This document shows, piece after piece, positions 1,690-52,800 of a stretch of DNA of 64,000 bases. The DNA is taken from assembly GCF_963921235.1 (NCBI RefSeq), contig NC_086108.1, positions 29,576,001 to 29,640,000 on the forward strand, read 5' to 3'. How positions within the stretch are numbered: position 1 is the stretch's first letter; each line of letters opens with the position of its first letter. The translations under genes were made by a program, and so were the position numbers. The DNA is from Mobula hypostoma (Eukaryota). The notes beneath the pieces were generated by a model. The model was not told the DNA's origin and made no database searches. It saw nothing but the letters and a program-made list of their open reading frames with translations.

Positions 1690-3496
1690 TTAATGTCCAG
1701 CAGGGTCTTGTGGGTAAGATGGTGTTGAACACTGACCTGTAATCAATAAACAGCAGCTTGACATAGCTATTGCTATTGTCCAGGTGGTCCAAGGCCAACA
1801 GGGGAGCCAGTGGGATTGCATCTGCTGCAGACCGATTGTGGCAAAAGGCAAACCGCAGTTGATCCAGGCCCGTCCTTAGGCAGGATTTGGTTCTGGCCAT
1901 GACCAAGATCTCAAAGCAGTTCATCACGGTAGATGTGACTGCAACTGGGCAATAGTCATTGAGACAACTCACCCTGCTCTTCCTTGGCACTGGTATGATT
2001 GTCCACAGTTTGAAGCAGGTGGGAATCTCTGACTGCAGCAGTGAGAGATTGAAGATGTCCTTGAATACTCCTGCCTGTTGGTTAGCACAGGTTTTCAGTG
2101 TCTTCCCGGGTACACCTCCGGGGCCTGACACCTTGTGAGAATTCACCCTCTTGAAAGGTGTTCAGACATCAGACTCCGAGACAGAGGTCACAGGGTCACC
2201 AGATGGTGCAGGGATTCACACAGGTATCGTTTTATTCTCCCTTTCAAAGTGTGCATAAAAGGTGCTGAGCTCATCTGGGAGTGAAGCAACACAGCCATTC
2301 ATGATGTTAGGTTTCACCTTGTAGGGAGTAATGGCCTGCAGATCCTGCCAGAGCTGACTTACATCTGGTTCTACCTCTAACTTCAATCAGAATTCTTTTT
2401 TTTCACCCTTAAAATAGCCTTCCATAGGTTATACCTGGACTTCTTGAATAGTTCGGGATCACCAGTTGTGAAAGCACAAATCAAATCTGTAGTAGACTGT
2501 GAATTTCCTGATTCATCCATGGCTTTTGGTTTGGGGATGTCTGGTGTGTTCTCGAAGGCACACTCTCGTCCATGCAGGTCTTGATGAAGTTGGTGACAAC
2601 TGTGATATATATTCATTCAGATTCAAGCTGAACCCCTGAATAGCATCCAGTCCACTATTTCAATGCTGTCCTGTAAGTGCAACTCCACCTCCCTTGATCC
2701 CTTGATCATACCTTCATAGTCCTTCACCGTTGGTACTGCCGTCCTCAGTTTCTGTCTGTATGTTGGTAGTAGAGATGCAGCCAGGTGATTGGACTTTCCA
2801 ATGGTTGGGATGGCGAGGTAAGCATTCCTGATGGTGGTGTAACAGTGCTCGCATGTGCTGTCTCCTCTGGTGATATGTTGGTGGTAGGTAGTCAGAGACA
2901 TCCTCAATCTGGCCTGGTTGAAATCCCCTATAATGATAAAGAAGGCATCAGGATGCACTGTTTCGTGACTGCTGATCATGGTGCTTAGCTCCTTCAAAGT
3001 CTGCCTGACTTTGGCCAGGGGTAGAATGTACATCGCTACCAGGATGATGATGGAACTGTCCCTTGGCAGATAAAATGGACACACTTGGATGCTAGATGTT
3101 CCAGGTTGGATGAGCAGGCCTGAGACGGAAATGTCATGTCTATGCACCCCTGATGTGTTTGTCGTTCAACACACTCACTCTTCTCTACCTTTAAAAGATT
3201 CAGCTATTCTGACTTTGCATAGATGGTGAAGCCCTTAGGCTGTAGCGATCTGGCCAAAATGGTGGATTTCAGCCAGGTTTCCTTGAAACAAAGTACGCAG
3301 CATTCCCCGGTGTCCCTCTGGTACTCAATCTTGCACTGAGGTCTTCAAGTTTATTTTCCAGAGAGTGTACATTCACCAGCAGGATGTTCAGGAGTGGGTT
3401 GTCTAAGGGTTGTGCGTTTCAATCGTATTTGCAGAACAGTATGCTTTGCGTGCTTCCTTTTTCTGAAAAGGAAACTACTTGCAACCTGAGTCTGCA
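1690..3496 (-). mobile_element. Degenerate Rex1/Babar LINE (endonuclease and RT fragments), interrupted by the LTR element and continuing at about 8604-8720
   Basis: ORF fragments CPFYLPRDSSIIILVAMYILP..IIGDFNQA and GPGGVPGKTLKTCANQQAGVFKDIFNLSL..LLFIDYRSVFNTI, with frameshifts. Confidence 0.85.
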
Positions 3497-4360
3497 CATA
3501 AAATTAAGATGTTTGCTGGCCTGGGCTAGCATCAGTGGCATCAGCAGTTGGTCTGCCACCTGCCCTCAGGGGAAGGAGAGATAAGGAACAATGGAGCAGC
3601 GTCTGGAGATGTGTAATGTAAGGGATGTGGGAGAGAGAGCTGTCTGGAGCGGCTCCCCCCTTTGAACCCTGAACTGTTTGAAGTGATGGACAGGCGATAC
3701 CCCAGCAGGGGGATAAAAAGGGACAGGTTCGCTAAGACAGACACACACGCCACCCGAGGTAACGAGACCCTGGAAGCGGTGCGCCTCTCACGAGTGGTGA
3801 GAAGTACCGGACAACGCACAGGGTGGAAAGGTACGATCAGCGGGAACCCGGTGTGTGTCCGCCCTTGCCTGGGTGCCGGGTTCACTGCAGAGGATCGACC
3901 GCATCTGGAGGAGGGGTCACAGTCGGTGACCTCAGGTGACATCACCAATGACCCGCCCAAAAGCTGTTTGCGAGCCATCTCGCTGGTCTGTGAGCCATCT
4001 TGCTGGTCTGTGAGTGAAGCCGTTCTGAATGATCAGTTGTTCCTATTCTATGTCTCTCTTCCCCCACCTTGTCCATCGCCATGGCAACGATTACTGCGAA
4101 TTGAACTACTAACTGGACTGAACTTTGAGTCATTTTGAAATTGGTCATTTACCCCTAGACAACGATAGAGCTTGATTGATGCTGTTATCTTAATTCTGTG
4201 CACATGTGTGGTTATCATTGTTGAATTGTTGCATTTATTATCCTTTCGATTACTGTGTTGCTTGTTTCTTTAATAAAACTTTCTTAGTTCTAGTACTCCA
4301 GACTCCAACTGAGTGATCCATTTCTGCTGGTTTGGCAACCCAGTTACGGGGTACGTAACA
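3495..4360 (+). repeat. 5' LTR, lacking the first 13 nt (TGTTACGAGAATA) and carrying a 20-bp tandem duplication at about 3972-4011
   Basis: Aligns to 7550-8395; ends CGTAACA; AATAAA near 4272. Confidence 0.95.
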
Positions 4361-4364
4361 TAAG

Positions 4365-4390
4365 TGGGGTTCTCGTCCGCGATTTTGAAC
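4365..4390 (+). promoter_or_regulatory. Primer-binding site, imperfectly complementary to the tRNA-Pro 3' end
   Basis: TGGGGTTCTCGTCCGCGATTTTGAAC compared with the tRNA-Pro complement TGGGGGCTCGTCCGGGATTTGAAC; starts 4 nt after the LTR end. Confidence 0.8.
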
Positions 4391-4459
4391 GCTAAATTTG
4401 GGACGGAGTAAATTGATTGGGTTAAAATTCCCGAAAGAAAGAAAAGACAAACAGCAGAA

Positions 4460-7364
4460 ATGGAGGTTGAGGAATTTATAAAGGCGCCGACCTTGGAGGC
4501 ATTAGAGGATGCCAGGAAATCGGAATTGATAGCTGTGGCCAAACGGGTGAATCTTGATAAGGTGAAGTCGACAATGAGGAGAGAGGAGATACACAGAGCT
4601 ATTGTAGAGCACTATGTATCTAAAGGTGTGTTTCCCCAAGGTGAGCTGGGGGAGGTGTCTATTGAAAAACCTGCTGGAGACGCGGTACAGGTACAGCTTG
4701 AAAAACTGAGACTCGAGCACGAGTTCCGGGTACGGCAGTTAGAACACGAAGAGAAGCAGTTAGAAAGGCAGGAGAAAGAGAGAGAGTTAGAAAGGCAGGA
4801 GAAAGAGAGAGAGTTAGAAAGGCGAGAGAGAGAGAAAGAGGTAGAAAGGCAAGAGAGAGAAAGACAGTTGGAGAGAGAAGAGAGAGAGGGACAGACAGTT
4901 GGAGAGAGAGGAGAAACAGAGGGAAAGGGAATTTGAGCTGGAGAAGTTAAAGATAAGGGCCGAGCAGGGGCTCGTGCCGAACCAAGGTGGAGGGTTCCGG
5001 GCGACCCAGGAGGTTAGGCTGGTTCCCCCATTTGACGATACCGATGTGGATCGGTACTTTCTCCATTTCGAAAAAGTGGCCATAAGTCAGGACTGGCCAA
5101 GGGATAAGTGGGTTGTTTTACTTCAGAGTGTACTGAAAGGGAAAGCCCAACAAGCTTACTCCGCTTTATCCGCGGAAGATGCCCAGAAGTATGAGGTGGT
5201 GAAGGAGGCCATCCTCAGGATTTATGAGTTGGTCCCGGAGGCATACCGGCAGAGGTTCCGGAATGCGAGGAAGCAGTGGGACCGCACGTATTTGGAGTTT
5301 GCTCGCGAGATGCAAACATATTGTGAGCGTTGGTGCGCCTCGAAAGGGGTAGAGGGGGATTATGACAGACTGCTGCAGCTGATTCTGATTGAGCAGTTTA
5401 AAGGTTGTGTCCCTGAGGGTATGAGACCCTACCTCGATGAGAAAGAGGCAGCCACGTTAGCCGCAACTGCTAAGTTAGCGGATGAGTATGCGTTGACGCA
5501 TAAAATGAAGGTTGCCCCGAGTAAAGGCTACCAGAAGGGTAGTCAGGACGGAGGGGAGAGTCCGCCGGAAAAGTCAGAAAGTAAGCCGGGGACTAGTGAA
5601 AAGGATAAGGTGGACCGGGAGCAGTCTGGTCGGAAGTCTCCTGGGGTCGTCTGTTATAATTGTGGGAAAGTCGGACACTTTGCGTCCAGGTGCTTTGCCC
5701 CAAGGAAGGAGACGGGGAAAGGAAAAGCGGAAATTTTGAATGGCTGTATTGAGCTGTTAAGCGAACCGCTAGGGAAGGACAGGTCTGAAAAAGTCCAGGA
5801 AGGGCGCGAGAGGTTTATCTCGGCCGGACTGGTGTCAGTGAAGGAGAGGTTAAAACCAGTTCCAGTGCGGATCTGGAGAGACACGGGAGCGTGTCAGTCA
5901 CTAATACTGAAGAGTGTATTAGAGTTTAGCTCAGAGACCCAGACTGGGGAGGTAGAGGTCAAAGGTGTTGGGGAAGGGACAGAGTCAGTCCCTTTGCACC
6001 AGATACATTTACAGAGCAACCTGGTCTCTGGACTAGTCACGATCGGGGTGAGGTCCGAATTACCGATGAAAGACGTGGAAGTCTTGCTCGGTAATGACAT
6101 CGCCGGAGGAATCGTGTTCCCAGTCGTGAGATTGACGGGTCAGCCTGCCAGCATGGAGGCCCCGCCCGCAATGGTGAATTTGGCTGAAACATTTCTGCCA
6201 ACCTTGTATGAGACAGGGTGTAGTGAGATAAGAGGTAGTGAGGGAGCTGGGACGGACGTAGCAGTAGCCAGGAAAGAATTTGTGCAGACGCAGGAGCGAG
6301 ACGAGGGGCTGATGGTTCTTGCCGAGACCGCTCTCTCTGACACAGCCTTGACAAGGGAACTAGTAGGCTATTGTGCGGATGAGGAAGTGCTAAGGAAGAA
6401 AGGGAAATCAAGGACAGTATCCGCAGATGAGGAGTGGGGGGTGGTGCAAAAGAGTTATGGGGATGAGGTTTTTAACATGGCCCACGAGGTACCCCCCGGT
6501 GGACATTTTGCGGTGCTGGAGGAAACAGTTGGTGGAATCATGAAAGAGATTTACCGGCTGCCCAGGGGGAAAAATGTTATTGATCATGACCGACGCGAAC
6601 TGAGACGGTCACCGGTTTTTGATATGCTAACAAACCAGGTCGGTGTTAGCGTGGAAATCAATGAAGCTAGGGGCCCCCTGCTAAGAGGAAAAAACCATTT
6701 TGAAAAGATTAGGATGGGATCGGTCAGATGGGAGAAGGCTATTGTTTTGGCCAGGTCTACTGATAAGGTCTCTCCCTTAATCCCCGAAGGAGTAATTAAA
6801 CGACTCGCACCCATGTGTTTGATTGTCCCGAGGAAATGCAAAGAACTGGGACGTTGGGTGATTGTGGTTACAATAGGGCGGCCAAGTAAACAACACCCAT
6901 ATTTTTTGAGTAATTCAGTGACTAAAGGGCTGATGAACACAGAGGTGTGTATTGGCGATTTAACACGGCTGTCTGAAGCCAGCTTGATAGTGAACCTTGA
7001 AAAAAATGAATTCGGCCACACGAAGATCACTTACCTGGGAATTGTGGTGACACAGGGGCAGCTGGCAGTGATGCAAGCTACAGTGCAGGCTATCGCTGAC
7101 CTCCCAACCCCGACAGACAAGAGGGCCCTCAGAAGGCTCTTGGAGATGGTGGGGTACTGCAGGAAGTTTTGCAATAACTCTGCGGTCAATACCCGTCCCC
7201 CTCCTACTAAGCCCTTGCGAGAGAAAACTGAGCCGGAATGGGACGACCCTTGTTGTTGTGGTCCGGGACAAAACCAAATGAGAGGTTACATTGGTCGCAA
7301 TTCATCAGTGTTTTTGGCCACTATGAAGTTTGCTGAGTTGGAGCCTGGTCTAAGGGATTATTAA
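4460..7364 (+). CDS. Gag-protease-truncated Pol polyprotein of the Gmr1-like element; one frameshift near 4890 in the GA-rich coiled-coil repeat
   Basis: ORFs 4460-4936 and 4899-7364. SCAN-like PEAYRQRFR..LILIEQF..LADEY; CYNCGKVGHFASRC; RDTGA..LLGND protease; AHEVPPGGHF (INT zinc-finger half); KQHPY and VNLEKNEF..TYLG..VGYCRKFC (RT). Confidence 0.85.
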
Positions 7365-7524
7365 TAACACGTGTAAAAGGAACAGAAAATGTGATGACTG
7401 TCTGTCAAGGTGTTGACAGCTTCAAATTCTCTGTATTAGCTAAATAACTGTTAAAGATGTATATTGTGTATGTATCAGATAATGTAGTCATGTTTGTAAT
7501 TTTTACCTCCCGGTAAAAATCCTT

Positions 7525-7536
7525 AAAGGGGGGAAG
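7525..7536 (+). promoter_or_regulatory. Polypurine tract
   Basis: AAAGGGGGGAAG immediately before the TG of the 3' LTR. Confidence 0.85.
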
Positions 7537-8395
7537 TGTTACGAGAATACACATAAAATTAAGATGTTTGCTGGCCTGGGCTAGCATCAGTGGCATCAGC
7601 AGTTGGTCTGCCACCTGCCCTCAGGGGAAGGAGAGATAAGGAACAATGGAGCAGCGTCTGGAGATGTGTAATGAAGGGATGTGGGAGAGAGAGCTGTCTG
7701 GAGCGGCTCCCCCCCTTTGAACCCTGAACTGTTTGAAGTGATGGACAGGCGATACCCCAGCAGGGGGATAAAAAGGGACAGGTTCGCTAAGACAGACACA
7801 CACGCCACCCGAGGTAACGAGACCCTGGAAGCGGTGCGCCTCTCACGAGTGGTGAGAAGTACCGGACAACGCACAGGGTGGAAAGGTACGATCAGCGGGA
7901 ACCCGGTGTGTGTCCGCCCTTGCCTGGGTGCCGGGTTCACTGCAGAGGATCGACCGCATCTGGAGGAGGGGTCACAGTCGGTGACCTCAGGTGACATCAC
8001 CAAGGACCCGCCCAAAAGCTGTTTGCGAGCCATCTCGCTGGTCTGTGAGTGAAGCCGTTCTGAATGATCAGTTGTTCCTATTCTATGTCTCTCTTCCCCC
8101 ACCTTGTCCATCGCCATGGCAACGATTACTGCGAATTGAACTACTAACTGGACTGAACTTTGAGTCATTTTGAAATTGGTCATTTACCCCTAGACAACGA
8201 TAGAGCTTGATTGATGCTGTTATCTTAATTCTGTGCACATGTGTGGTTATCATTGTTGAATTGTTGCATTTATTATCCTTTCGATTACTGTGTTGCTTGT
8301 TTCTTTAATAAAACTTTCTTAGTTCTAGTACTCCAGCCTCCAACTGAGTGATCCATTTCTGCTGGTTTGGCAACCCAGTTACGGGGTACGTAACA
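7537..8395 (+). repeat. Complete 3' LTR (859 bp)
   Basis: TGTTACG...CGTAACA inverted termini; near-identical to the 5' LTR. Confidence 0.95.
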
Positions 8396-8603
8396 CAAAG
8401 TACGCAGCATTCCCCGGTGTCCCTCTGGTACTCAATCTTGCACTGAGGTCTTCAAGTTTATTTTCCAGAGAGTGTACATTCACCAGCAGGATGTTCAGGA
8501 GTGGGTTGTCTAAGGGTTGTGCGTTTCAATCGTATTTGCAGAACAGTATGCTTTGCGTGCTTCCTTTTTCTGAAAAGGAAACTACTTGCAACCTGAGTCT
8601 GCA
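8396..8603 (+). repeat. 208-bp direct duplication of host sequence 3289-3496 flanking the LTR element
   Basis: CAAAGTACGCAGCATTCCCC...AACCTGAGTCTGCA occurs on both sides at offset 5107 and appears identical. Confidence 0.93.
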
Positions 8604-10312: not shown

Positions 10313-12125
10313 CATAGAAACATAGAAACATAGAAAATAAGTGCAGGAGTAGGCCATTCGGCTCTTCGAGCCTGCACCAGTATTCAGTATGATCATGGCT
10401 GATCATCCAACTCAGAACCCTGTACCAGCCTTCCCCCCATACCCCCTGATCCCTTTAGCCACAAGGGCCATATCTAACTCCCTCTTAAATATAGCCAATG
10501 AACTGGCCTCAACTGTTTCCTGTGGCAGAGAATTCCACAGATTTACCACTCTCTGTGTGAAGAAGTTTTTCCTAATCTCGGTCCTAAAAGGCTTCCCCTT
10601 TATCTTCAAACTGTGACCCCTCATTCTGGACTTCCCCAACATCGGGAACAATCTTCCTGCATCTAGCCTGTCCAATCCCTTTAGGATTTTATACATTTCA
10701 ATCAGATCCCCCCTCAATCTTCTAAATTCCAATGAGTATAAGCATAGTTCATCCAGTCTTTCATCATATGAAAGTCCTGCCATCCCAGGAATCAATCTGG
10801 TGAACCTTCTTTGTACTCCCTCTATGGCAAGGATGTCTTTCCTCAGATTAGGGGACCAAAACTGCACACAATGCTCCAGGTGTGGTCTCACCAAGGCCTT
10901 GTACAACTGCAGTAGTACCTCCCTGCTCCTGTACTCGAATCCTCTCGCTATAAATGCCAGCATACCATTCGCCTTTTTCACCGCCTGCTGTACCTGCATG
11001 CCCACTTTCAATGACTGGTGTATAATAACACCCAGGTCTCATTACACCTCCCCTTTTCCTAATCGGCCACCATTCAGATAATAATCTGTTTTCCTGTTTT
11101 TGCCACCAAAGTGGATAACTTCACATTTATCCACATTAAATTGCATCTGCCATGAATTTGCCCACTCACCTAACCTATCCAAGTCACCCTGCATCCTCTT
11201 AGCATCCTCCTCACAGCTAACACTGCCGCCCAGCCTCGTGTCATCCGCAAACTTGGAGATGCTGCATTTAATTCCCTCATCCAAGTCATTAATATATATT
11301 GTAAACAACTGGGGTCCCAGCACTGAACCTTGCAGTACCCCACTAGTCACTGCCTGCCATTCTGAAAAGGTCCCGGTTATTCCCACTCTTTGCTTCCTGT
11401 CTGCCAACCAATTCTCTATCCACATCAATACCTTACCCCCAATACCATGTGCTTTAAGTTTGCACACTAATCTCCTGTGTGGGACCTTGTCAAAAGCCTT
11501 TTGAAAATCCAAATATACCACATCCACTGGTTCTCCCCTATCCACTCTGCTAGTTACATCCTCAAAAAATTCTATGAGATTCGTCAGACATGATTTTCCT
11601 TTCACAAATCCATGCTGACTTTGTCCGATGATTTCACTGCTTTCCAAATGTGCTGTTATCACATCTTTGATAACAGACTCTAGCAGTTTCCCGACCACCG
11701 ATGTTAGGCTAACCGGTCTATAATTCCCCCGTTTCTCTCTCCCTCCTTTTTTAAAAAGTGGGGTTACATTAGCCACCCTCCAATCCTCAGGAACTAGTCC
11801 AGAATCTAAAGAGTTTTGAAAAATTATCACTAATGCATCCACTATTTCTTGGGCTACTTCGTTAAGCACTCTGGGATGCAGACCATCTGGCCCTGGGGAT
11901 TTATCTGCCTTTAATCCTGTCAATTTACCTAACACCACTTCCCTACTAACATGTATTTCCCTCAGTTCCTCCATCTCACTGGACCCTCTGTCCCCTATTA
12001 TTTCCGGAAGATTATTTATGTCCTCCTCAGTGAAGACAGAACCAAAGTAATTATTCAATTGGTCTGCATTGTCCTTGCTCCCCATAATCAATTCACCTGT
12101 TTCTGTCTGTAGGGGACCTACATTT
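10313..12125 (-). mobile_element. Young 5'-truncated CR1 LINE (ORF2 RT and C-terminus; one nonsense codon near 11042)
   Basis: ORFs 11042-12091 and 10412-11011 with [18 protein letters not shown] and KFADD motifs; (CATAGAAA)n tail; probable GGTCA TSD inside an older SINE. Confidence 0.95.
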
Positions 12126-31800: not shown

Positions 31801-34800
31801 GTACGACATCAAGTCATGGTCCTCGTGGCGTTCAAGTATCACGTCAAGTTACGGCCCTGGCAGCGTTCAAGTACCGTGTCAAGTTCCGGCCCTGGCGGCA
31901 TTCAAGTACCATGTCAAGTCCTGTCCCTGGCGGTCTGTGATTCCTGTCCTACCCCCTTGTCTGAATCCCTTCTCTGCCCCTCTCGCCTCTAACCCTCGTC
32001 TGCAGCCCTCACCTGCACTTCAGTCTAGTTCCATCACCGGAGCTAGATAGGTACTGTCTGGTGTTCATTCGTATTTGTCTTGTCTTGTCTTGTCTTGTCC
32101 TCGCCTCCGTGGGGTAAGTCAGGCTGTCTTGCTGTTACCCCGTGGGGGGTCACGTCTTGTCATGTCTTGTCCTCGCCTCTGTGAGGTAAATCAGGCCGTC
32201 TTGCTGTTGCCTCGCGGAGGGTCATGAGTCCCGGCCCTATGTCCTGTACCCAAGGAGGGGTCCTGGCTCTCTGTTCTGTGTGTGAGTGCCGGCCCTATGT
32301 CCTGTACCCAAGGAGGGGTCCCGACTCTGTGTTCTGTGTATGTGTCTATGGTTCCATGTACCTGCTCTCCCGAGACCGAGGCTCTGTGTTCCCATGTTCC
32401 TCCTCTCCCTAGCCCATGTCATGTCCTTGTCTGGTTCTGGGGTCTGAACCCGAGGCAAGACCCGGGTACTGGGTCCTTGCCCAGTCTCGGGCTCGGAGTC
32501 CATACCCTAGCCTCTTCATGTCTCCTCTAGTTCTGGGAGCCGATTCCGAGTCCAAGCTCAACCCTTGTCCCAGCCTAGTCGTAGTCCTGAGTCCTTGTTC
32601 AGTCGCTATTCCTGCTCCTGCCTTGCTCTCCTGGTATCGAACAATAAACTAAATCTAAGTAACCTCACAAGATGTGTCTTGCATTTGGGTCCACCCCACG
32701 CCCCCGCCATCGTGACACAGTTAGTCTTTGTCTCTCTCTCTCTTCAAAACAACATGTCTGTTGTAATATGAGCATAATTAAAAGTAAGTTAATACTAATT
32801 AGGATATCATGGGGGGGGGGGGTCTAGTTCCGTTTGTTCTCCCGGTGGCCCTCGTGTACATAGTGTTCCCGCCGTGCCGTACGGGTTGTGAAACTCTCTG
32901 TATAAATTCAGGACCCCCGTCACACTTTAAACAGGATCAATAGACAGCAAACTGTGCAAATGCGATTATAAATAAATAGCAATAAATAATGACCATGAAG
33001 TAACAAGATAAAGCGTCCTTAAAGTGAGACCATTGGTTGTGGGAACACCAAAAGTAGAATGAGTGTAGTTACCCTTTTTGTTCAAGGTCATGGTGGTTGA
33101 GGGATAGTAACTGTTCTTGAACCAGGTAGTGTGAGACCTGTACCTTCTACCTGATAGCAGCAGTGAGAAAAGAGCATGGCCTGGTTGGTGAAGGTCTTTG
33201 ATGATGGATGCGCTCAGTGGTTGGGAGGGTTTTACCCATGATGTACTGAGCCAAATCCACTACCTTTTGTATGTGGTGTAAAGTGGGGTGGGGGGCAGGT
33301 AAGTACACATCCCTGTGGTGTAGAGCGAGTGGGGGGGAGGGGAAGGTAACTACACATCCCTGTGGTGTAGAGCGAGTAGAGCAGGGGTAATTACACATCC
33401 CTGTGGTGTAAAGTGAGGGGGGGGGGTAAGTACACATCCCTGTGGTGTAAAGTGAGGGGGGGAAGGTAACTACACATCCCTGTGGTGTAGAGCGAGTAGA
33501 GCAGGGGTAATTACACATCCCTGTGGTGTAAAGTGAGGGGGGGGGGTAAGTACACATCCCTGTGGTGTAAAGTGAGGGGGGGGGGGTAAGTACACATCCC
33601 TGTGGTGTAAAGCGAGAGGCAGGGGGTAAGTACACATCCCTGTGGTGTAGAGTGAGTAGAGCAGGGGTAATTACACATCCCTGTGGTGTAAAGTGAGGGG
33701 GGGGGTAAGTACACATCCCTGTGGTGTAAAGCGAGAGGCAGAGGGTAAGTACACATCCCTGTGGTGTAAAGTGAGGGGGGGGGTAAGTACACATCCCTGT
33801 GGTGTAAAGTGAGGGGGGGGGTAAGTACACATCCCTGTGGTGTAAAGCGAGAGGCAGAGGGTAAGTACACATCCCTGTGGTGTAGAGTGAGTAGAGCAGG
33901 GGGTAAGTACACATCCCTGTGGTGTAGAGCGAGTGGGGGGGGGTAAGTACACATCCCTGTGGTGTAGAGCGAGTGGGGGGGGGTAAGTACACATCCCTGT
34001 GGTGTAGAGCGAGTGGGGGGGGGAGGTAACTACACATCCCTGTGGTGTAGAGCGACTAGAGCAGGGGTAAGTACACATCCCTGTGGTGTAAAGTGAGGGG
34101 GGGGGTAAGTACACATCCCTGTGGTGTAGAGCGAGTGGGGGGGGGAGGTAACTACACATCCCTGTGGTGTAGAGCGACTAGAGCAGGGGTAAGTACACAT
34201 CCCTGTGGTGTAAAGTGAGGGGGGGGGTAAGTACACATCCCTGTGGTGTAAAGTGAGGGGGGGGGGTAAGTACACATCCCTGTGGTGTAAAGCGAGAGGC
34301 AGAGGGTAAGTACACATCCCTGTGGTGTAGAGCGAGTAGAGCAGGGGGTAAGTACACATCCCTGTGGTGTAAAGTGAGGGGGGGGGTAAGTACACATCCC
34401 TGTGGTGTAAAGTGAGGGGGGGGGTAAGTACACATCCCTGTGGTGTAGAGCGAGTAGAGCAGGGGGTAAGTACACATCCCTGTGGTGTAGAGCGACTAGA
34501 GCAGGGGTAAGTACACATCCCTGTGGTGTAGAGCGAGTGGGGGGGGGAGGTAACTACACATCCCTGTGGTGTAGAGCGACTAGAGCAGGGGTAAGTACAC
34601 ATCCCTGTGGTGTAAAGTGAGGGGGGGGGTAAGTACACATCCCTGTGGTGTAAAGTGAGGGGGGGGGTAAGTACACATCCCTGTGGTGTAAAGCGAGAGG
34701 CAGAGGGTAAGTACACATCCCTGTGGTGTAGAGTGAGTAGAGCAGGGGGTAAGTACACATCCCTGTGGTGTAGAGCGACTAGAGCAGGGGTAAGTACACA

Positions 34801-37800
34801 TCCCTGTGGTGTAGAGCGAGTGGGGGGGGGAGGTAACTACACATCCCTGTGGTGTAGAGCGACTAGAGCAGGGGTAAGTACACATCCCTGTGGTGTAAAG
34901 TGAGGGGGGGGGGTAAGTACACATCCCTGTGGTGTAGAGCGAGTAGAGCAGGGGGTAAGTACACATCCCTGTGGTGTAAAGCGAGTTGGGGGGGGGTAAG
35001 TACACATCCCTGTGGTGTAGAGCGAGTTGGGGGGGGGTAAGTACACATCCCTGTGGTGTAGAGTGAGTAGAGCAGGGGGTAAGTACACATCCCTGTGGTG
35101 TAGAGCGAGTGGGGGGGGGGTAAGTACACATCCCTGTGGTGTAGAGCGAGTGGGGGGGGGGTAAGTACACATCCCTGTGGTGTAGAGCGAGTTGGGGGGG
35201 GGTAAGTACACATCCCTGTGGTGTAAAGCGAGTTGGGGGGGGGGTAAGTACACATCCCTGTGGTGTAGAGCGAGTTGGGGGGGGGTAAGTACACATCCCT
35301 GTGGTGTAAAGCGAGTTGGGGGGGGGTAAGTACACATCCCTGTGGTGTAGAGCGAGTAGAGCAGGGGGTAAGTACACATCCCTGTGGTGTAGAGCGAGTG
35401 GGGGGGGGGTAAGTACACATCCCTGTGGTGTAGAGCGAGTAGAGCAGGGGGTAAGTACACATCCCTGTGGTGTAGAGCGAGTGGGGGGGGGGTAAGTACA
35501 CATCCCTGTGGTGTAGAGCGAGTGGGGGGGGGGTAAGTACACATCCCTGTGGTGTAGAGCGAGTAGAGCAGGGGTAAGTACACATCCCTGTGGTGTAGAG
35601 CGAGTGGGGGGGGGTAAGTACACATCCCTGTGGTGTAAAGCGAGTTGGGGGGGGGGTAAGTACACATCCCTGTGGTGTAAAGCGAGTTGGGGGGGGGGGT
35701 AAGTACACATCCCTGTGGTGTAGAGCGAGTGGGGGGGGGTAAGTACACATCCCTGTGGTGTAAAGCGAGTTGGGGGGGGGTAAGTACACATCCCTGTGGT
35801 GTAAAGCGAGTTGGGGGGGGGGGTAAGTACACATCCCTGTGGTGTAGAGCGAGTTGGGGGGGGGTAAGTACACATCCCTGTGGTGTAAAGCGAGTTGGGG
35901 GGGGGTAAGTACACATCCCTGTGGTGTAGAGCGAGTAGAGCAGGGGGTAAGTACACATCCCTGTGGTGTAGAGCGAGTGGGGGGGGGTAAGTACACATCC
36001 CTGTGGTGTAGAGCGAGTAGAGCAGGGGGTAAGTACACATCCCTGTGGTGTAGAGCGAGTGGGGGGGGGTAAGTACACATCCCTGTGGTGTAGAGCGAGT
36101 GGGGGGGGGTAAGTACACATCCCTGTGGTGTAAAGCGAGTAGAGCAGGGGGTAATTACACATCCCTGTGGTGTAGAGCGAGTGGGGGGGGGTAAGTACAC
36201 ATCCCTGTGGTGTAGAGCGAGTGGGGGGGGGTAAGTACACATACCTCTGGTGTAAATCTAGTAGGGGGGGGGGGTAAGTACACATCCCTGTGGTGTAAAG
36301 CGAGTAGAGCAGGGGTAAGTACACATCCCTGTGGTGTAAAGCGAGTTGGGGGGGGGGTAAGTACACATCCCTGTGGTGTAAAGCGAGTAGAGCAGGGGGT
36401 AATTACACATCCCTGTGGTGTAAAGCGAGTTGGGGGGGGGGTAAGTACACATCCCTGTGGTGTAGAGCGAGTTGGGGGGGGTAAGTACACATCCCTGTGG
36501 TGTAAAGCGAGTTGGGGGGGGGGGTAAGTACACATCCCTGTGGTGTAGAGCGAGTTGGGGGGGGGTAAGTACACATCCCTGTGGTGTAGAGCGAGTAGAG
36601 CAGGGGGTAATTACACATCCCTGTGGTGTAGAGCGAGTGGGGGGGGGGTAATTACACATCCCTGTGGTGTAGAGCGAGTGGGGGGGGGGTAATTACACAT
36701 CCCTGTGGTGTAAAGCGAGTTGGGGGGGGGGTAAGTACACATCCCTGTGGTGTAAAGCGAGTTGGGGGGGGGGGTAAGTACACATCCCTGTGGTGTAGAG
36801 CGAGTGGGGGGGGGGTAAGTACACATCCCTGTGGTGTAGAGCGAGTAGAGCAGGGGGTAAGTACACATCCCTGTGGTGTAGAGCGAGTGGGGGGGGGGTA
36901 AGTACACATCCCTGTGGTGTAAAGCGAGTTGGGGGGGGGTAAGTACACATCCCTGTGGTGTAAAGCGAGTTGGGGGGGGGTAAGTAAAAATCCCTGTGGT
37001 GTAGAGCGAGTGGGGGGGGGTAAGTGCACATCCCTGTGGTGTAGAGCGAGTGGGGGGGGGGTAAGTACACATCCCTGTGGTGTAAAGCGAGTAGAGCAGG
37101 GGGTAAGTACACATCCCTGTGGTGTAGAGCGAGTGGGGGGGGGTAAGTACACATCCCTGTGGTGTAGAGCGAGTGGGGGGGGGTAAGTACACATCCCTGT
37201 GGTGTAGAGCGAGTGGGGGGGGGGTAAGTACACATCCCTGTGGTGTAGAGCGAGTGGGGGGGGGGGTAAGTACACATCCCTGTGGTGTAGAGCGAGTAGA
37301 GCAGGGGGTAAGTGCAACTTTCCTGACTTGTTTTGACTGGATGATGGTATGGTATTAATGCTGAGCTTAACACCATGAGACATAGCATCAGAATTAGGCC
37401 ATTCGACCCTCCATTTGTTATCCCTCTCAACTCCATTTTCCTGCCTTCTTCCTTTAACCTTTGACATCCTTACTCATTAAAGAACTTATCAACCTCATAT
37501 TTAAATATACCAATGTCTTGGCCTCCACAGCTATCTGTGGCAATGAATTGCAGTTTCATCATCCCCTGGCTTAAGAAATTCATCATCTGTTCTAACGGGA
37601 TGTCCTACTCTGAGGCTGTGCCCTCTGGTCTTTTACTTTGCCACGAAAGGAAACATCCCCTCCACATTCACTCAATCTGAGCCTTTCAATATTCGATAGC
37701 TTTCAATGAGATCCTCCTTTATTCTTCAAAACTCAGTGAGTACAGGTGCAGAACCACCAAAAGCTCTTCACTCATTTACCCTGTCATTAGCAATTTATTC

Positions 37801-40800: not shown

Positions 40801-43800
40801 AGAAACATCTACCCTGTAAGGCCCAAGAGAACTGTGTATATTTTAATGATATCACCTTTACCATGATGAAAATTGGCAATAATGTAAAAGGTGGAAAATG
40901 CATTGCTGGCACTTAGTCATAGAAATACAGCTTGAAAGCACATCCAGTCATTATCCACCCATCAACACCAATCCTAGGTTAATCTTCGTGATATATTTCC
41001 CCTACATTATTGTAAAATATCTCCAGATTCTACCACTCAGTTGCACAGTAGCCACTTGTGCTTTAAAGATTTTATTCACAGAGAGCATCACATGAAAGAA
41101 CAAATAAAGATGTGCGTTTGCAGCTTAGTAAATGCCTGTTTGAAAGTCCCTTCAGTAGTGTAACACAGCCACTCGCTGGATCAAAGAACACTCGTGGTTG
41201 GTAGCGGTACAAACTGAAACCTGACAACATTTAGGTATGTGGTACTGTGCTGGCACATAGAAAGGTTCTAAATGACCTATGGTAGATTAACTGGCCCCTA
41301 ATTAATAGAGACCAGGGATAAATCGACAGGAAGGTGGGGAGAGCAAAATAGGACTCATGTAATTGGGTGCTTGATAGTCAGTCTGGATTTAATGGGCCAA
41401 AGTGCTTGTTTCCTTATTGTATGACTTTCATCACATAGTATCAATTAGTAATCAATTTAGCCCAAACGTAATTAAATGCATTTTGGCAAAAAAAATCTGA
41501 TCCCATTGGTATCAATTTAGTATTCCTTAAAAAAAAACCTGTTTATCCATACTAGCAGTAACAATTTCCTTATCTCCTTGCAGGAGGCTCTTTCAGTCTA
41601 TGCTTTCTCACAGAGCAATCTTATTTCCTCCATTAATTTTTCCTGCAGCGTTTTCCACACATTTCCTTCAATTCTTCCTCATAAACTACACACACCTGCA
41701 CACAGAAAGAGCAATTTACAGTGGCAAATTTACTTACCTAAAATGTCCTTTTATGAACTCGCATTTAAATCCTATTTCCAGCATAGCAACCTCAGTCCCA
41801 TCTCCAGCATAGCAACAATTAAGTTAATATGGCAGCGTGGTCATTTATTATACTGTAATGCTTTGCTGCATTTTTCAGCCTCTGACATTAGGTGAAAGAT
41901 ATTTATTGTGCAGCACGCAGCAATCTGCAGATGATAAAATTTGCATTTTCTTCCAGCTTGATGCTGGTAATTCCAAAATATGCTTTTCAAATAATTTAAA
42001 ACCAAGCACCATTCAGCCGTTAGATGATATTGCTGAACTTGATTATGACCCAGAAAAGATACAATATGGAACATGGTCTGTTTGCTTCTTACTATGTCAG
42101 AACCTACGGGATACAATGGTACTGAAGCTGATAACCAAACATGGTAATAAAAATTTCTATCGATATCTCTACAACAGTCATAACATATCAAGAGGAAAAC
42201 CCAGTGGTGAAGAACAAAGTTCCAAAAGTGTACTTCTACTTCCAGTTTTATTTATTGACTAGGCCCTTCCAGCCTTTCAATTTGTGCCGCCTAGCAACCC
42301 CCAGTTGAACCCTAGCCTAATCATGGGACAATTTACAATGTCCAATTAACCTACCAACTGGTATGTCTTTGCGCTGTGGGAGGAAACCCATGCAGTCACA
42401 GGGAGAACAAATTCTTTGCAGACGCCAGTGGGAATCAAACCCAGGTTGCTTCTACTGTAAAGTGTTATGCTAACCACTACACTACCATGCTACTGAGGTC
42501 GATTTTTCCTCAGACCACTGTTTAGCATTTGAAAGTCATTCCAATTTTTTTGTATTAAATATGAATTCCTGACACAGGTATTGGTCTGTCATTGTTCCAT
42601 CATTGAAAAACTTTGCTTGAGAGAATGGATATAGAGAAAGGAAAAATATCTAGAATATGGAAACCTATTGGATCTGGAAATGATATAAGGAATCCAGCCA
42701 TTTAAGCATTACATTAACTAAATACCCTGCTGTATTTTCTTACATTTCTTTGTTATTTTAAAACTTATTTGAACTGGTGATTTGAAACAAAGCATTGAAA
42801 ACTTTCCACATGGGACGTCAATGGAATTAGTTAGCTGAGAATGCTGGAAGTACCCCCTTCACAGTGAAGCACTGTGTGCTACATATAGGATGGTCTGCAT
42901 CCTAGAGTGCTTAAGGAAGTAGCCCAAGAAATAGTGGATGCATTAGTGATAATTTTTCAAAACTCGTTAGATTCTGGACTAGTTCCTGAGGATTGGAGGG
43001 TGGCTAATGTAACCCCACTTTTTAAAAAAGGAGGGAGAGAGAAACCGGGGAATTATAGACCAGTTAGCCTAACGTCGGTGGTGGGGAAACTGCTGGAGTC
43101 AGTTATCAAGGATGTGATAACAGCACATTTGGAAAGCAGTGAAATCATCGGACAAAGTCAGCATGGATTTGTGAAAGGAAAATCATGTCTGACGAATCTC
43201 ATAGAATTTTTTGAGGATGTAACTAGTAGAGTGGATAGGGGAGAACCAGTGGATGTGGTATATTTGGATTTTCAAAAGGCTTTTAACAAGGTCCCACACA
43301 GGAGATTAGTGTGCAAATTTAAAGCACACAGTATTGGGGGTAAGGTATTGGTGTGGGTGGAGAATTGGTTAGCAGACAGGAAGCAAAGAGTGGGAATAAA
43401 TGGGACCTTTTCAGAATGGCAGGCGGTGACTAGTGGGGTACCGCAAGGCTCAGTGCTGGGACCCCAGTTGTTTACAATATATATTAATGACTTGGATGAG
43501 GGAATTAAATGCAGCATCTCCAAGTTTGCGGATGACACGAAGCTGGGTGGCAGTGTTAGCTGTGAGGAGGATGCTAAGAGGATGCAGGGTGACTTGAATA
43601 GGTTGGGTGAGTGGGCAAATTCATGGCAGATGCAATTTAATGTGGATAAATGTGAAGTTATCCACTTTGGTGGCAAAAATAGGAAAACAGATTATTATCT
43701 GAATGGTGGCCGATTAGGAAAAGGGGAGGTGCAACGAGACCTGGGTGTCATTATACACCAGTCATTGAAAGTGGACATGCAGGTACAGCAGGCGGTGAAA

Positions 43801-46800
43801 AAGGTGAATGGTATGCTGGCATTTATAGCGAGAGGATTCGAGTACAGGAGCGGGGAGGTACTACTGCAGTTGTATAAGGCCTTGGTGAGACCACACCTGG
43901 AGTATTGTGTGCAGTTTTGGTCCCCTAATCTGAGGAAAGACATCTTTGCCATAGAGGGAGTACAAAGAAGGTTCACCAGATTGATTCCTGGGATGGCAGG
44001 ACTTCCATATGAAGAAAGATGGATGAACTGGGCTTGTACTCATTGGAATTTAGAAGATTGAGGGGGGATCTGATTGAAACGTATAGGATCCTAAAGAGAT
44101 TGGACAGGCTAGATGCAGGGGGATTGTTCCCGATGTTGGGGAAGTCCAGAACGAGGGGCCACAGTTTGAGGATAGAGGGGAAGCCTTTTAGGACCGAGAT
44201 TAGGAAAAACTTCTTCACACAGAGAGTGGTGAATCTGTGGAATTCTCTGCCACAGGAAACAGTTGAGGCCAGTTCATTGGCTATACTTAAGAGGGAGTTA
44301 GATATGGCCCTTGTGGCTACGGGGGTCAGGGGGTATAGAGGGAAGGCTGGGGCGGGGTTCTGAGTTGGATGATCAGCCATGATCATAATAAATGGCGGTG
44401 CAGGCTCCGAATGGCCTACTCCTGCACCTATTTTCTATGTTTTCTATATTGGAAGGAATGTCCAAAACCTTTCCCTATGAAATGGATCTTCCCAGAAGAA
44501 TATTGTAATTTACTGTCTTTCTTTCCCTGGGAAGACTCCCACTAAGAACTCTTGTAGTCCATAGTTTTAAATAATCATGCCTGCAAAGACATAGAGATAT
44601 AAATAGCCGTTTGAAACATTATTCTCAGCATGGTCAATTAAATCAGAAATCTTTCATCTGCTTTAAAATCAGAAAAATGGTATTTACCGGCAGTGAAAGC
44701 AGTTACTAAAAGAACATAAGTTGAATCATGAGTTAAACCATATAATGTCACCAGAAATATGAAATATATCTGTAATTGGAAAATCTAACACATTATTTCC
44801 AACTGGAAGACATCAGAGACTTTTAATCTTTTCTATGCAGCATTGCAGTCACTACAACTTTCTCATTATTGTTGGGGCTGGTTTCTGATTTGAATACACT
44901 TAAGTGAAGTTGGGTAAAATGAAAGGGGTTACATATTGTTTGTTTAAAGCTATTTCAATGAATCTTGGCATATCATTCCTAAAGACAAAACATGGTGGGG
45001 GAGAAAATGCCGTTTGCGGTGGCTTACAAGACAAAGGAACAGAATTAGAATATTTGGCCCATCGAGTCTGCTCCAACATTTCATCATGGCTGATCCATTT
45101 CCTTCTCAACCTCATTCTCCTGCTTTTCTCCTGTAATGTTTCCTGCTCCGACTAATCAACCTATCTACCTCTGTCTTAAATACACCCAATGACCTGTCCT
45201 CCACAGCCACCCGTGGCAATGAATTACACACGTTCACCACCCTAAAGCTAAAGAAATTCCTTCTCATCTCTGTTCTAATGGGCATTATCCTATTGGTTGC
45301 TCAGTGTACACCTTACCTGAAATTTAATTCAATTGCAGTCAATTTAATTGAACATTATGACATATGATACTCCCAGTTCAGATCCAGCAACCTGAAAGCA
45401 CGAGTTATTATGCATTTTATCTGTTTATCCATCCTGATGCGTATTTCGTAGCAGTGGTTATTTTTGCAAGAATTGTATTTTGATAGTCCACCCTGGTGTG
45501 GGAATCAATCTTGCTTCACTAGTGCTATGGATTTGCCTGTCCTGACCAGACTGACAGGAAGAGAATGGAAAATTGCCTGATGTGTTATGCAGGAGTTAAT
45601 GCGTCCTTTGCAAGGCTGATCCTTTTGACTAGTTAAGGAAATATTATAGATACGAGGACTTTGGGATGTGTAGGAAATATGACAGATTAAGCCAAAGTAG
45701 CTCTTCACACTTTACAATTATCCAGGAAGACATCTTAAACAGGAATCTGGCATGGAGAAATATATTTTTTTATATCAACACACTAACAGGATCAACACCA
45801 TTTTCATTAAATGGCACTGCTGATCTGTGTAAGATCTGCTCACAAAACACGGGGCTGTCCCAGGAGCAGGTCTTGAACAACTGGCTGATATCCAGTTGTG
45901 CAACAGCTGTGATACACTGAAAGAAGGACCCTAATTGTCTGTCCCCTTGGGGCATGTAGGCAGCATTTGCAGCATTTAAGAGCCACCTTGTTATTTGTGA
46001 TGGCCTTTCAATACTTACTAACGACCTCACACTCAGCAGTGAGCACTCCAAATTCTTTCCCATCCATGTGACAGTTTCTGTGGATGGGAAGACAACCGTG
46101 CTGAATCTAAATGGGTGGTAACACATGGAGGTTTACGACTACAACACGTAGAGACGTTTGGATAGGTACATGGAGGGGAGAGTCTGAGAGGATTATGGGC
46201 TGCACATGGCAACCGGGTCTAGGAGGGAGGATGCTGTGGTTGGCATGGTGAGTGAGCTAAGGGGCCTGTTTCCGTGCTGTAGCACTCTATGACTCTGGGT
46301 TTAATCACAGACAGTTTCTGTACTGACCAGATCTGAAAGCAGGAAAATTTTCTCATGCAAAAATCTGGGCCCTGTAATATAACAGAATGAGTCTTGTGGC
46401 AGGACTGTTTGGGGAGGCATCCACAGCGGTATTCTGGTACAGTGTGGATACACGGCTGTCGTCACTCCCGGGGGGTGGGGCAACAGTTCTGTCTCTCTTC
46501 AGTTGCTACCTTTCCTGAGGCCTGACACGTCCAGGAATAAATCTGCTACATAGGTTAAAATGGCAACCTTCCTTTTAAGTGGCTTCTGCCCATACTCCAC
46601 CTAGATTACACCTGAAAGTAGATGAACTGATGCCATGCTTTAACCTCCGAACTGATCCTATCCCACCTGTTAAGGGGGTTAATGTCTCCTTAATGCCGTT
46701 GGTTCAGTTCCAGGTGGGAATTAGTAGACCAAATAGTTTTAACTCTCTACCTTCACTCTGACAATTGTTAAGCACTTTTGTACAGAATATTCAAAACATT

Positions 46801-49800: not shown

Positions 49801-52800
49801 GCCCTGTGTTTGCAGCTTTTTGATCAGACCTATAGGAATGATTGTATTAAACACTGAGCTGTAGTCAATAAACAGCATTCTGACATAAGCATCAGTGTTG
49901 TCCAGGTGATCCAAGGCCACATGAGGAGCCAATGAGTTCGCATCTTTTGCTCGTGAGATAGCCCTCCATAAGTCGTACCTGACCTTCTTGTATAGTCCTG
50001 GATCACCAGACTTCAATGCCACAGATCTAGCCCTCAGCAAACTATGAATTTCCTGGTTCATCCACGGCTTTTGGTTTGGGTATGTAGAGTATGTGCGAGT
50101 GGACACACACTCATCCGCACAGGCTTTAATGAAGTAAGTGGCAACTGTGGTGTACTCTTTCAGCCTCGAAGATGAATCCCTGAATACAATCCAGTCCAAA
50201 GACTCAAAGCAGTCCTGTAAGTGCTCCTGCACCTCCCTTGTCCGTGCCTTCTTGGTCCTCACTGCTGGTGCTGTGGTCTTCAGTCTCTGCCTATAATCAG
50301 GGAGTAGAGGTGATCAGACTTTCCTCAGTGTGGGTGTGTGATGGTATGGTAAGCATCCTTGATGGTACTCTAATAGCGGTCCAGTGTGCTGGCTCCCCTG
50401 GTTCCACAAGTGATATGTTGGTAATAATTACTTAGAGACTTTTTCAAGTTGGCTTGGTTAATCTCCCCCAAAATGATGGGGAAGGCATCAAAGTGCACTG
50501 TTTCAGGCCTATTACATTGCTCAGATTGTCTAGAGCAGGGGTCAGCAACCTTTTTGCCTCTGTGGGCCAGATCACATATTAATGAGCAGCTGGTAGGCCA
50601 GATAAATGCCATAAAAAACTTGAAATATGGAATTATCCATTTAAATACATCTAGTTATGTTTTGCCTCAAATTAATGAATAACACATGCTAGAAAATCAT
50701 TTGTGCTTAACCAAGGATGCCAATTGGCAATCAAGAACTCAGTTTAGTTGCAACTAATTTCAATCAAGGCATCTTTTGAATCTATTAAAAGGACACAAAG
50801 AATCTTTAAACATAAAACTTATGAACGTGATGCATTGAATGGTGGTAAATTAAGTATAATAAAAAAGAAAATTTTAATGCAAACAGTCGATAAATCAATG
50901 TGAAATTTGATGCAGTTTGTTGCTTGAAAGCTTCTCAATATTGGGTGTCCGACTTGTTGATGCCAAGAGCAAGACATTATCCAGATGGGCATCAGTCAAT
51001 CTTGCTCTCAAATGGTTCTTGGTGTGCTTCATTTTAGAAAATAATTGCTCACACAGATAAGTGCTGCCAAACAATGATGCCATCTCTTTTGCATGGTCCA
51101 CTAAGTTAGGCTACTTCCTACTTGGATGAACATATTTTCTATAGAAGTCAAGAGTTGAAATTTCGATCTCAATATGTCGTCACACTGCATCTCAATCAAT
51201 TCCATTTGAAAACTTTCTGATGCCGTGTCCACTTCCATATCAAATGGAGCAGCAAACAGCTTGAACTCATTTGCATGCAAGCGAAATCAGCAAAACGAGA
51301 TGAAAATTCTTTTCTCAATTCTTGGACCATATTCACAAAAATGCCTGGATCTTGTGCTTTACTTTTTTGAAAAGTGGGAAAATGTGCACAATTTCCTTTT
51401 TGAAGCTGGTACTCCCACAATTGCAGCTTTCTTTCCACTATGGCGGGTCTCATAATGTCGCCTGATATTTGCCACCTTCTTCACAACAACATTTTCTAGG
51501 CAAATGAGACAAACTGGTTTCCCAGCTTGCTCGATTAAGAAGTAATCTAGTGTCCAAGTGGCTTGGAAATTTCGGCACTCAGTGTCCACCTTCCTGCGTT
51601 TTGCATTCATTGCCATTGGAATATTTCTCTTCGATTTACTTTGAAACATGAGTTTTCAACAAGTATCGTAGCACATGTAAATATCTGGATATTTAGCGTG
51701 GATTTCTTGTTAAAACACAGTGAAGCTGTTTCTGTTTACAAATTTGAACCATCCCATCTGAAAACCTGCGCGTGCATGGAGGGTATCTGATACATATTAA
51801 TAAGGTAGTCTGCCTTCCCGTCATTCGTATATACCAGTGTTTGATTTGGAACAAAACGGAACCTGGGGCCAGTGTAACAAGACGCCATGCATGTCCATCA
51901 GTGTGGTTGTGTGAAACACTCAGAATAAGGAAAAATCACTCAAGGGCTGGATAAGCATAGTATCCCAATATTTGCTCACGGGCCGGTCAAATTACCTTCG
52001 CGGATCAGATCTGGCCCACGGGCGTAGGTTGCCTACCCCTGATCTAGAGCCTGTTTGACACAGGCCTCAGGTGGGATGTACACTACTATCAAGATGATGG
52101 CTGAAAACTCCCATGGCAAATAAAATGGCTGACACTTGATCACTAAATGTTCCAGGTCGGGTGAGCAGGACTGGGACAGAACCACCAAATTTGTGCACCA
52201 CAAGGAGGTAATCATAAAGCTTCGCCTTCCTAAACAACCTTTTAAACCAACGCACTGTCCTCTCTTCCGCTGTCTTAAGGGGGAACTGCAACAGCGACCA
52301 GAGACATCCATCTGAGATTCGTGGACTTTGAGTAGCGATAGATTTTTTAATCACCATAAAATTATATCACTTACTGTATTGTCCTTGTCCATGGCTGTAG
52401 CCATGGATTTCAGCTGTAGCAGTCTTAGCGGGAATATTTGATGACTTCCATCAGAGCTGCTTGCACGAGTTGCCTTCTTAATGGTGCCCCGTATTACTGA
52501 GGGACCTGTGACGGTCTGCTTTAAGTCTGACTGTTTGGGATTCATGGAGGAATTTGCTTGGGCTGAAAATAGAGGAAGGTGCCGAGTTCTTTTTCACCTT
52601 GACCTGGAGGAAGAAGGTATATAATTCAAAACAGAGTGATCTTCTATTGCAACCAGAGGATTTGTGCTTTCACTTCTTCCTTTTAGCGCAGCTTAGCAGT
52701 TGCTGTCAATTAAGAGGTGAAAGCATTTTACAGTGTTACACATACATTTGTGAACATGCTTTGGGCTAGATTAAGGAGCCTTTTGTACTGTTGCACAGCA

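Follow-up and report, generated by a model that had tools for sequence, protein, structure and literature searches.

One-ended proviruses have been described for HIV-1 and ASLV (Varadarajan et al. 2016, PMC5041404). According to the sections of that study used here, the other end of such a provirus is often truncated and usually shows short homology at the join, and in most cases hundreds or thousands of bases of host DNA are duplicated; the model offered is that a host polymerase primes from the free viral 3' end, with recombination to follow. Amongst 451 putative target-site duplications (TSDs) of HERV-K (HML-2), eight exceed 10 bp and six measure at least 61 bp (Kahyo et al. 2017, PMC5488345). 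The long ones range over 61-450 bp, with 206, 250 and 450 bp amongst the values given in the sections used, and pre-integration alleles are reported for two. A 3'-truncated HERV-K provirus at 21q21.1 has a 450-bp duplication (PMC4422153), and the relevant passages of that report tie HERV-K loci to aberrant integrants of RSV vectors, the integration of which is finished by host enzymes. As far as these parts of the two reports go, germline records of one-ended integration are already described for HERV-K and are already attributed to the same mechanism. No precedent from a retrotransposon, of the gypsy group or any other, was found in a literature search that lacked most subscription journals, and for that reason we make no claim of a first.

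The locus considered here lies in a 64,000-nt stretch of DNA from Mobula hypostoma (the window, to which all positions refer). Like the HIV-1 and ASLV integrants, as they are presented in the sections cited above, it combines a normal integrase end with short homology, a long host duplication and, in the assembly, a truncated end; whereas those cases come from cultured cells and involve drugs, integrase mutants or a mutated end, the Mobula copy is spontaneous, inherited and of the gypsy group. It resembles the HERV-K loci, to the extent that the same sources describe them, in being a germline LTR element between long host duplications, but HERV-K is a betaretrovirus-like endogenous retrovirus of primates and the Mobula element a non-autonomous Gmr1-like retrotransposon of a ray, in which, as a further difference, neither LTR has been lost and the assembly retains the trimmed junction. 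Gmr1-like gypsy elements are described, in the passages of the preprint used (bioRxiv 10.1101/2025.03.03.638093), as encoding a SCAN-type capsid followed by protease, integrase and reverse transcriptase (RT), and as abundant in fish genomes. The Mobula element shares with them a SCAN-type capsid and, as collinear remnants, the order protease, integrase, RT/RNase H; unlike autonomous Gmr1-like elements as characterized there, its family is without the integrase core and most of the RT, and has kept one long frame.

Structure of the insertion

The features of the locus are the following.

3289-3496, no strand: left copy of the duplicated host segment (D, 208 nt), equal to 8396-8603; contigs of both organisms examined join D to the left flank
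3495-3496, plus strand: CA microhomology at the aberrant junction, where the host end equals LTR nt 14-15
3495-4360, plus strand: 5' LTR without nt 1-13, 866 nt, aligning to the 3' LTR from LTR nt 14
4365-4383, plus strand: primer-binding-site-like sequence, 4 nt past the LTR end
4460-4936, plus strand: N-terminal part of gag, 158 aa; in this copy its reading frame differs from that of the rest
4845-7364, plus strand: long frame, 839 aa, with SCAN-type capsid, zinc knuckle, protease motif DTG, integrase zinc-finger remnant, about 110 codons, and RT C-terminal remnant
7525-7536, plus strand: polypurine tract, adjoining the 3' LTR
7537-8395, plus strand: intact 3' LTR, 859 nt, TG...CA; its CA end is a clean integrase-type junction
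8396-8603, no strand: right copy of D, followed by the right flank

The order is thus left flank, D, the LTR without 13 nt, the internal region, the intact LTR, D again and right flank. A first-pass annotation of this DNA had claimed that the host sequence at 3289-3496 is repeated at 8396-8603, and the two copies do match at 208 of 208 nt, or over 209 nt if the common A at 3288 and 8395 is included; against chance, an exact repeat of 209 nt has a blastn E of 3e-106. The right end had been described as a clean ...CGTAACA, and this also holds: the sequence at 8395 is the family LTR end, and the 3' LTR runs from TGTTACG to CGTAACA with a perfect 7-nt terminal inverted repeat. The family LTR end is fixed at 4360 because 131 contigs of run X5 (see below) depart behind that position into unrelated flanks. 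The LTR start sequence occurs once within the window, and no other family copies were found by it in the window or in the metagenome contigs. The TG...CA LTR ends and the polypurine tract are present as in Gmr1-like gypsy elements, except that the 5' LTR is without its TG. The two LTRs differ by two substitutions (3949 and 4302) and three indels, one at 3619, one in a C-run near 3655 and the third a 20-nt tandem duplication of the 5' LTR, at about 3972-4014, that the 3' LTR does not have. The contigs indicate that the 5' LTR also has the family-rare state at 3619 and 3949.

Integrase joins CA-3' ends, and gypsy integrases produce TSDs of about 4-5 bp. A source for this last value was not found in the literature search, nor were TSD data found in the passages used from PMC4131045. 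At the ends of the present element no TSD of 4, 5 or 6 nt fits. In the assembly, the LTR-derived bases of the left end begin with CA on the top strand, not with TG, and so this end, as assembled, is not integrase-made. Use of a cryptic internal end by integrase was considered and rejected on the same ground, the TG at 3493-3494 being host sequence that recurs in the right copy of D. The CA at 3495-3496 can be assigned either to the host or to the LTR. A microhomology of 2 nt is not significant on its own (at least 2 nt is expected with P = 0.16 for a random join), and six of the last nine bases before the join agree (P = 0.01), over a span picked after the fact. The breakpoint lies at most 15 nt from the terminus, which is 0.3% of the element length.

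The duplicated segment belongs to an old interspersed repeat and probably holds, on the minus strand, the beginning of a LINE endonuclease frame. It contains what we recognise as an endonuclease-start motif, presumably marking a LINE remnant; the Exo_endo_phos_2 match on 2623-3162 falls below the cut-off (E 0.067) and lends weak support to a LINE, and 2414-2964 matches 49958-50504 at 70.6%. Elsewhere in the window there are two inverted LINE copies, 31 kb apart and 93-96% alike (10368-11887 and 42889-44407), with an RVT_1 match on 11042-12124, a 41-bp satellite at 33272-37313 (approximately 99 copies, 88% matches, strong G-skew), and a palindromic, MITE-like element of nested inverted repeats at 55463-56101 (arms of 80, 60 and 125 nt, 90-96%).

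Identity and coding content of the element

To judge from its coding content, the element belongs to the Gmr1-like gypsy retrotransposons, is non-autonomous and SCAN-bearing, and has its closest relatives in Mobula. The sequence at 4365-4383 appears to resemble a tRNA-Pro primer site. Pfam comparison of the long frame gives SCAN above the cut-off (E 4.6e-13) and zf-CCHC (E 3.8e-6). With this frame as the query of a protein search, 8000 candidates were scored and 431 matched. The eleven that matched best all come from M. hypostoma (79-98% identical), and the first of them is 97% identical over the full query length. The frameshift that separates the two parts of gag sits within AG-rich repeats (4749-4921), and the relatives P0001 and P0002 have both parts in a single frame.

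The full-length relative P0015 (1424 aa) has the Pfam order SCAN, Integrase_H2C2, rve, RVT_1, RNase H, with which the remnants in the element are collinear, although alignment is confined to aa 2-605 and 1145-1275. There is no counterpart of aa 606-1144 in the long frame, and hence no integrase core, and a YxDD RT motif was not found there; a profile of 40 full-length relatives leaves the same gaps. The approximately 110 codons at 6582-6911, which take the place of the integrase core and RT, gave no retroelement domain and no convincing match of any kind (best phmmer iE 0.12 against 11 relatives, 2.9 bits with the profile, no Atlas cluster), a result with which capture of a host gene would be compatible. 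Since P0001-P0004 carry the same reduced pol, its loss is a family trait, and with the integrase core and most of the RT lost across the family, helper enzymes would have to be supplied in trans. P0001 consists of one open frame of 966 aa despite a pol without integrase core and most of the RT. Its gene model is named 'metastasis-associated in colon cancer protein 1 isoform X1' and aligns to the element over residues 1-966; it looks like a retrotransposon frame bearing the name of a host gene, and P0010, named phosphatidylserine decarboxylase, may be a similar case.

The duplication in the contigs of public runs

Of 20 public runs, four contain 0.79-0.85 of the words of the window (organism A, that of the window, one sample) and four hold 0.40-0.41 (organism B, one sample); runs X9-X20, with word shares of at most 0.08, were left out. 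Logan contigs of two runs each (X1 and X2 for A, X5 and X8 for B) were compared over 2000-4745. These are de Bruijn contigs in which neighbours overlap by 30 nt, so that the words are 31 long; X1 and X2 represent one sample, possibly that of the assembly itself. On the sequence of the window, the duplication predicts that the contig of the left flank stops at 3317 and that another stops at 3496, whereas a normal insertion with a short TSD predicts a break at 3292-3294.

In X2, the contigs cover 2964-3317 and 3344-3496, such that both breaks predicted from the duplication are present, and over 3344-3496 the depth reaches 23.9, which is 1.94 times that of the flanks (11-13.6). The corresponding depth in X1 is 14.1 against 5.1-8.1 (2.24-fold). 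The break at 3496 is seen in both A runs and that at 3317 in one of them, a contig of X1 (2964-3373) passing 3317 unbroken, contrary to prediction; the low depth of X1 (5-8) may be the reason. The duplication is real in organism A. The first-pass annotation had set against its own reading a normal TG start with a TSD of 4-5 bp, and as far as the contigs allow, neither X1 nor X2 has the break at 3292-3294 that this would give. It could be supposed instead that the assembly has merged a heterozygous normal insertion with the empty haplotype. Such an artefact should break the contigs at 3292-3294 but not at 3496, and should leave the depth undoubled. Both runs show the reverse, and there is no N in the window; the artefact gains something from the unbroken 3317 in X1 and from a left junction that is not directly spanned, but is to be regarded as exceedingly improbable. 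Since the depth ratio is close to 2 and not to 1.5, the sampled animal seems to have no empty allele, and the insert is probably on all of its flank-carrying chromosomes.

None of the contig records listed (70645 more exist) spans the left junction, where a contig of about 58 nt is expected, and the 13-nt loss is therefore read from the assembly. Here the first-pass annotation, which had the left LTR lacking its first 13 nt and joined through CA, is borne out by the assembly alignment and has no counterpart amongst the contigs listed. The unspanned junction leaves room for the proposal that the left LTR was intact when integration produced the duplication, and that the 15 nt between the two CA dinucleotides disappeared afterwards, or during polishing of the assembly. 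Several HERV-K loci with long duplications are solo LTRs of about full length, according to the sections of PMC5488345 used, which fits this proposal. It requires an extra event, though, and trimmed ends are common among the one-ended integrants treated in the corresponding sections of PMC5041404; moreover, no insertion of 13-15 nt at 3496 is present among the matches listed. We consider such a secondary loss very unlikely.

The site in a relative and the origin of the two LTRs

In both X5 and X8, a single contig spans the left flank and one copy of D at flank-like depth, and extends past 3496 by 105 and 104 letters, respectively, that do not fit the LTR. Between organisms A and B, 26 of 1214 bases differ in the alignment of the four X5 flank contigs (2.1%). 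Two of these differences, at 3405 and 3440, fall within D, and at neither position does A show a variant. Because B has one copy of D and no LTR, the site was single-copy before the insertion and the duplication arose on the line of A. The possibility, raised at the outset, that the empty allele already carries the 208 bp in tandem thus meets a single copy, in a relative rather than a conspecific.

This bears on two models given in PMC5488345 for pseudo-TSDs, in which either a tandem duplication was already present or two insertions 208 nt apart recombined via their LTRs. The great abundance of the family, and the five places at which the two LTRs differ, could be cited in their favour. Besides the single-copy site in the relative, they are opposed by a T that is common to both LTRs (4101 and 8136) and near-private in the family: in X2, C accounts for 551306.5 of 551336.3 depth units at this position, and the remainder of 29.8 equals 2.4 flank-depths, or about two LTRs. 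Both LTRs would accordingly derive from one cDNA, which argues against recombination between two separate insertions. The non-C remainder is 0 in X5 and X8, as expected; it is also 0 in X1, against approximately 12 expected, for which the low depth of that run may again be responsible. Neither model accounts for the trimmed, non-TG end, and a pseudo-TSD appears highly improbable. The summed LTR depths show the family to be very abundant, and are not a measure from which copy number can be derived.

The LTRs diverge by approximately 0.24%, against 2.1% between A and B, which would place the insertion late, at roughly a tenth of the A-B split, with a wide error given only two substitutions. At the age of the LTR pair, zero differences in D would be seen with a P of about 0.3-0.6 (826 columns used, of an ungapped alignment of 845). 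Being only 208 nt long, D with 0 differences still allows a divergence of up to 1.4%, and so it cannot be dated apart from the insertion.

Proposed mechanism

We propose, with a probability of about 70%, that the locus records a one-ended (half-site) germline integration of a non-autonomous Gmr1-like element, coupled to repair by the host. The four features of the published cases are present in the assembly, in keeping with the reading first offered for this DNA. Integrase supplied in trans would have linked the CA terminus of the 3' LTR to the host DNA that precedes 3289 and left the other end unjoined. This free end would then have lost 13-15 nt during host repair and been attached, via CA, to the host 208 nt further along. 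There are two routes by which this might occur. In the first, which follows the model of PMC5041404, the free 3' end of the element would act as a primer on the host at 3495-3496, and D would be copied leftwards. In the second, which we infer, the host end broken at 3288 would, after replication, have copied D from the intact sister and been end-joined to the element. Both routes lead to the same sequence. A break at most 15 nt from the terminus points to a free end, and not to a random later break, with the caveat that it was a nearly whole LTR that drew notice to the locus.

Alternatively, a normal two-ended integration with a short TSD might have been followed by a later break on the left, repaired from the empty homologue, with approximately 204 bases copied and a microhomology join to LTR nt 14-15. 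This would yield exactly the same sequence, and D, which is not datable apart from the insertion, is compatible with it. It calls for another break, independent of the integration and no more than a few tens of bases from the junction, at a time when the site was still heterozygous, and there is no trace of a normal allele in X1 or X2, the contigs of which cross 3292-3294 (a point of little weight, coming from one animal). We regard later repair as unlikely. The first-pass annotation had allowed for a repair event soon after insertion; this and the integration-coupled repair proposed here predict the same sequence and are inseparable by sequence.

Implications

The one-ended integration proposed here provides a clean inherited example, outside the retroviruses proper, of an accident of integration that was worked out in cell culture, and indicates that insertions of the gypsy group can duplicate host DNA. 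LTR finders based on TSDs will miss such copies or set their bounds wrongly, and recombination between the 208-nt repeats could remove the element precisely, to leave an allele that looks empty. A single copy changes no model. As about one in 75 HML-2 loci (six of 451) have duplications this long, a family of this abundance should hold many such copies. It can also be speculated, as a decidedly doubtful extension, that one-ended insertion is far commoner in a helper-dependent family, which has to take its integrase from a diverged helper, than among autonomous elements. If that were true, the family copies in ray genomes, at thousands of sites, would form a natural archive of germline half-site integration, from which the rate, the end bias (U3 or U5), the trim length and the duplication size could be measured, and the family would be a steady source of small host duplications.
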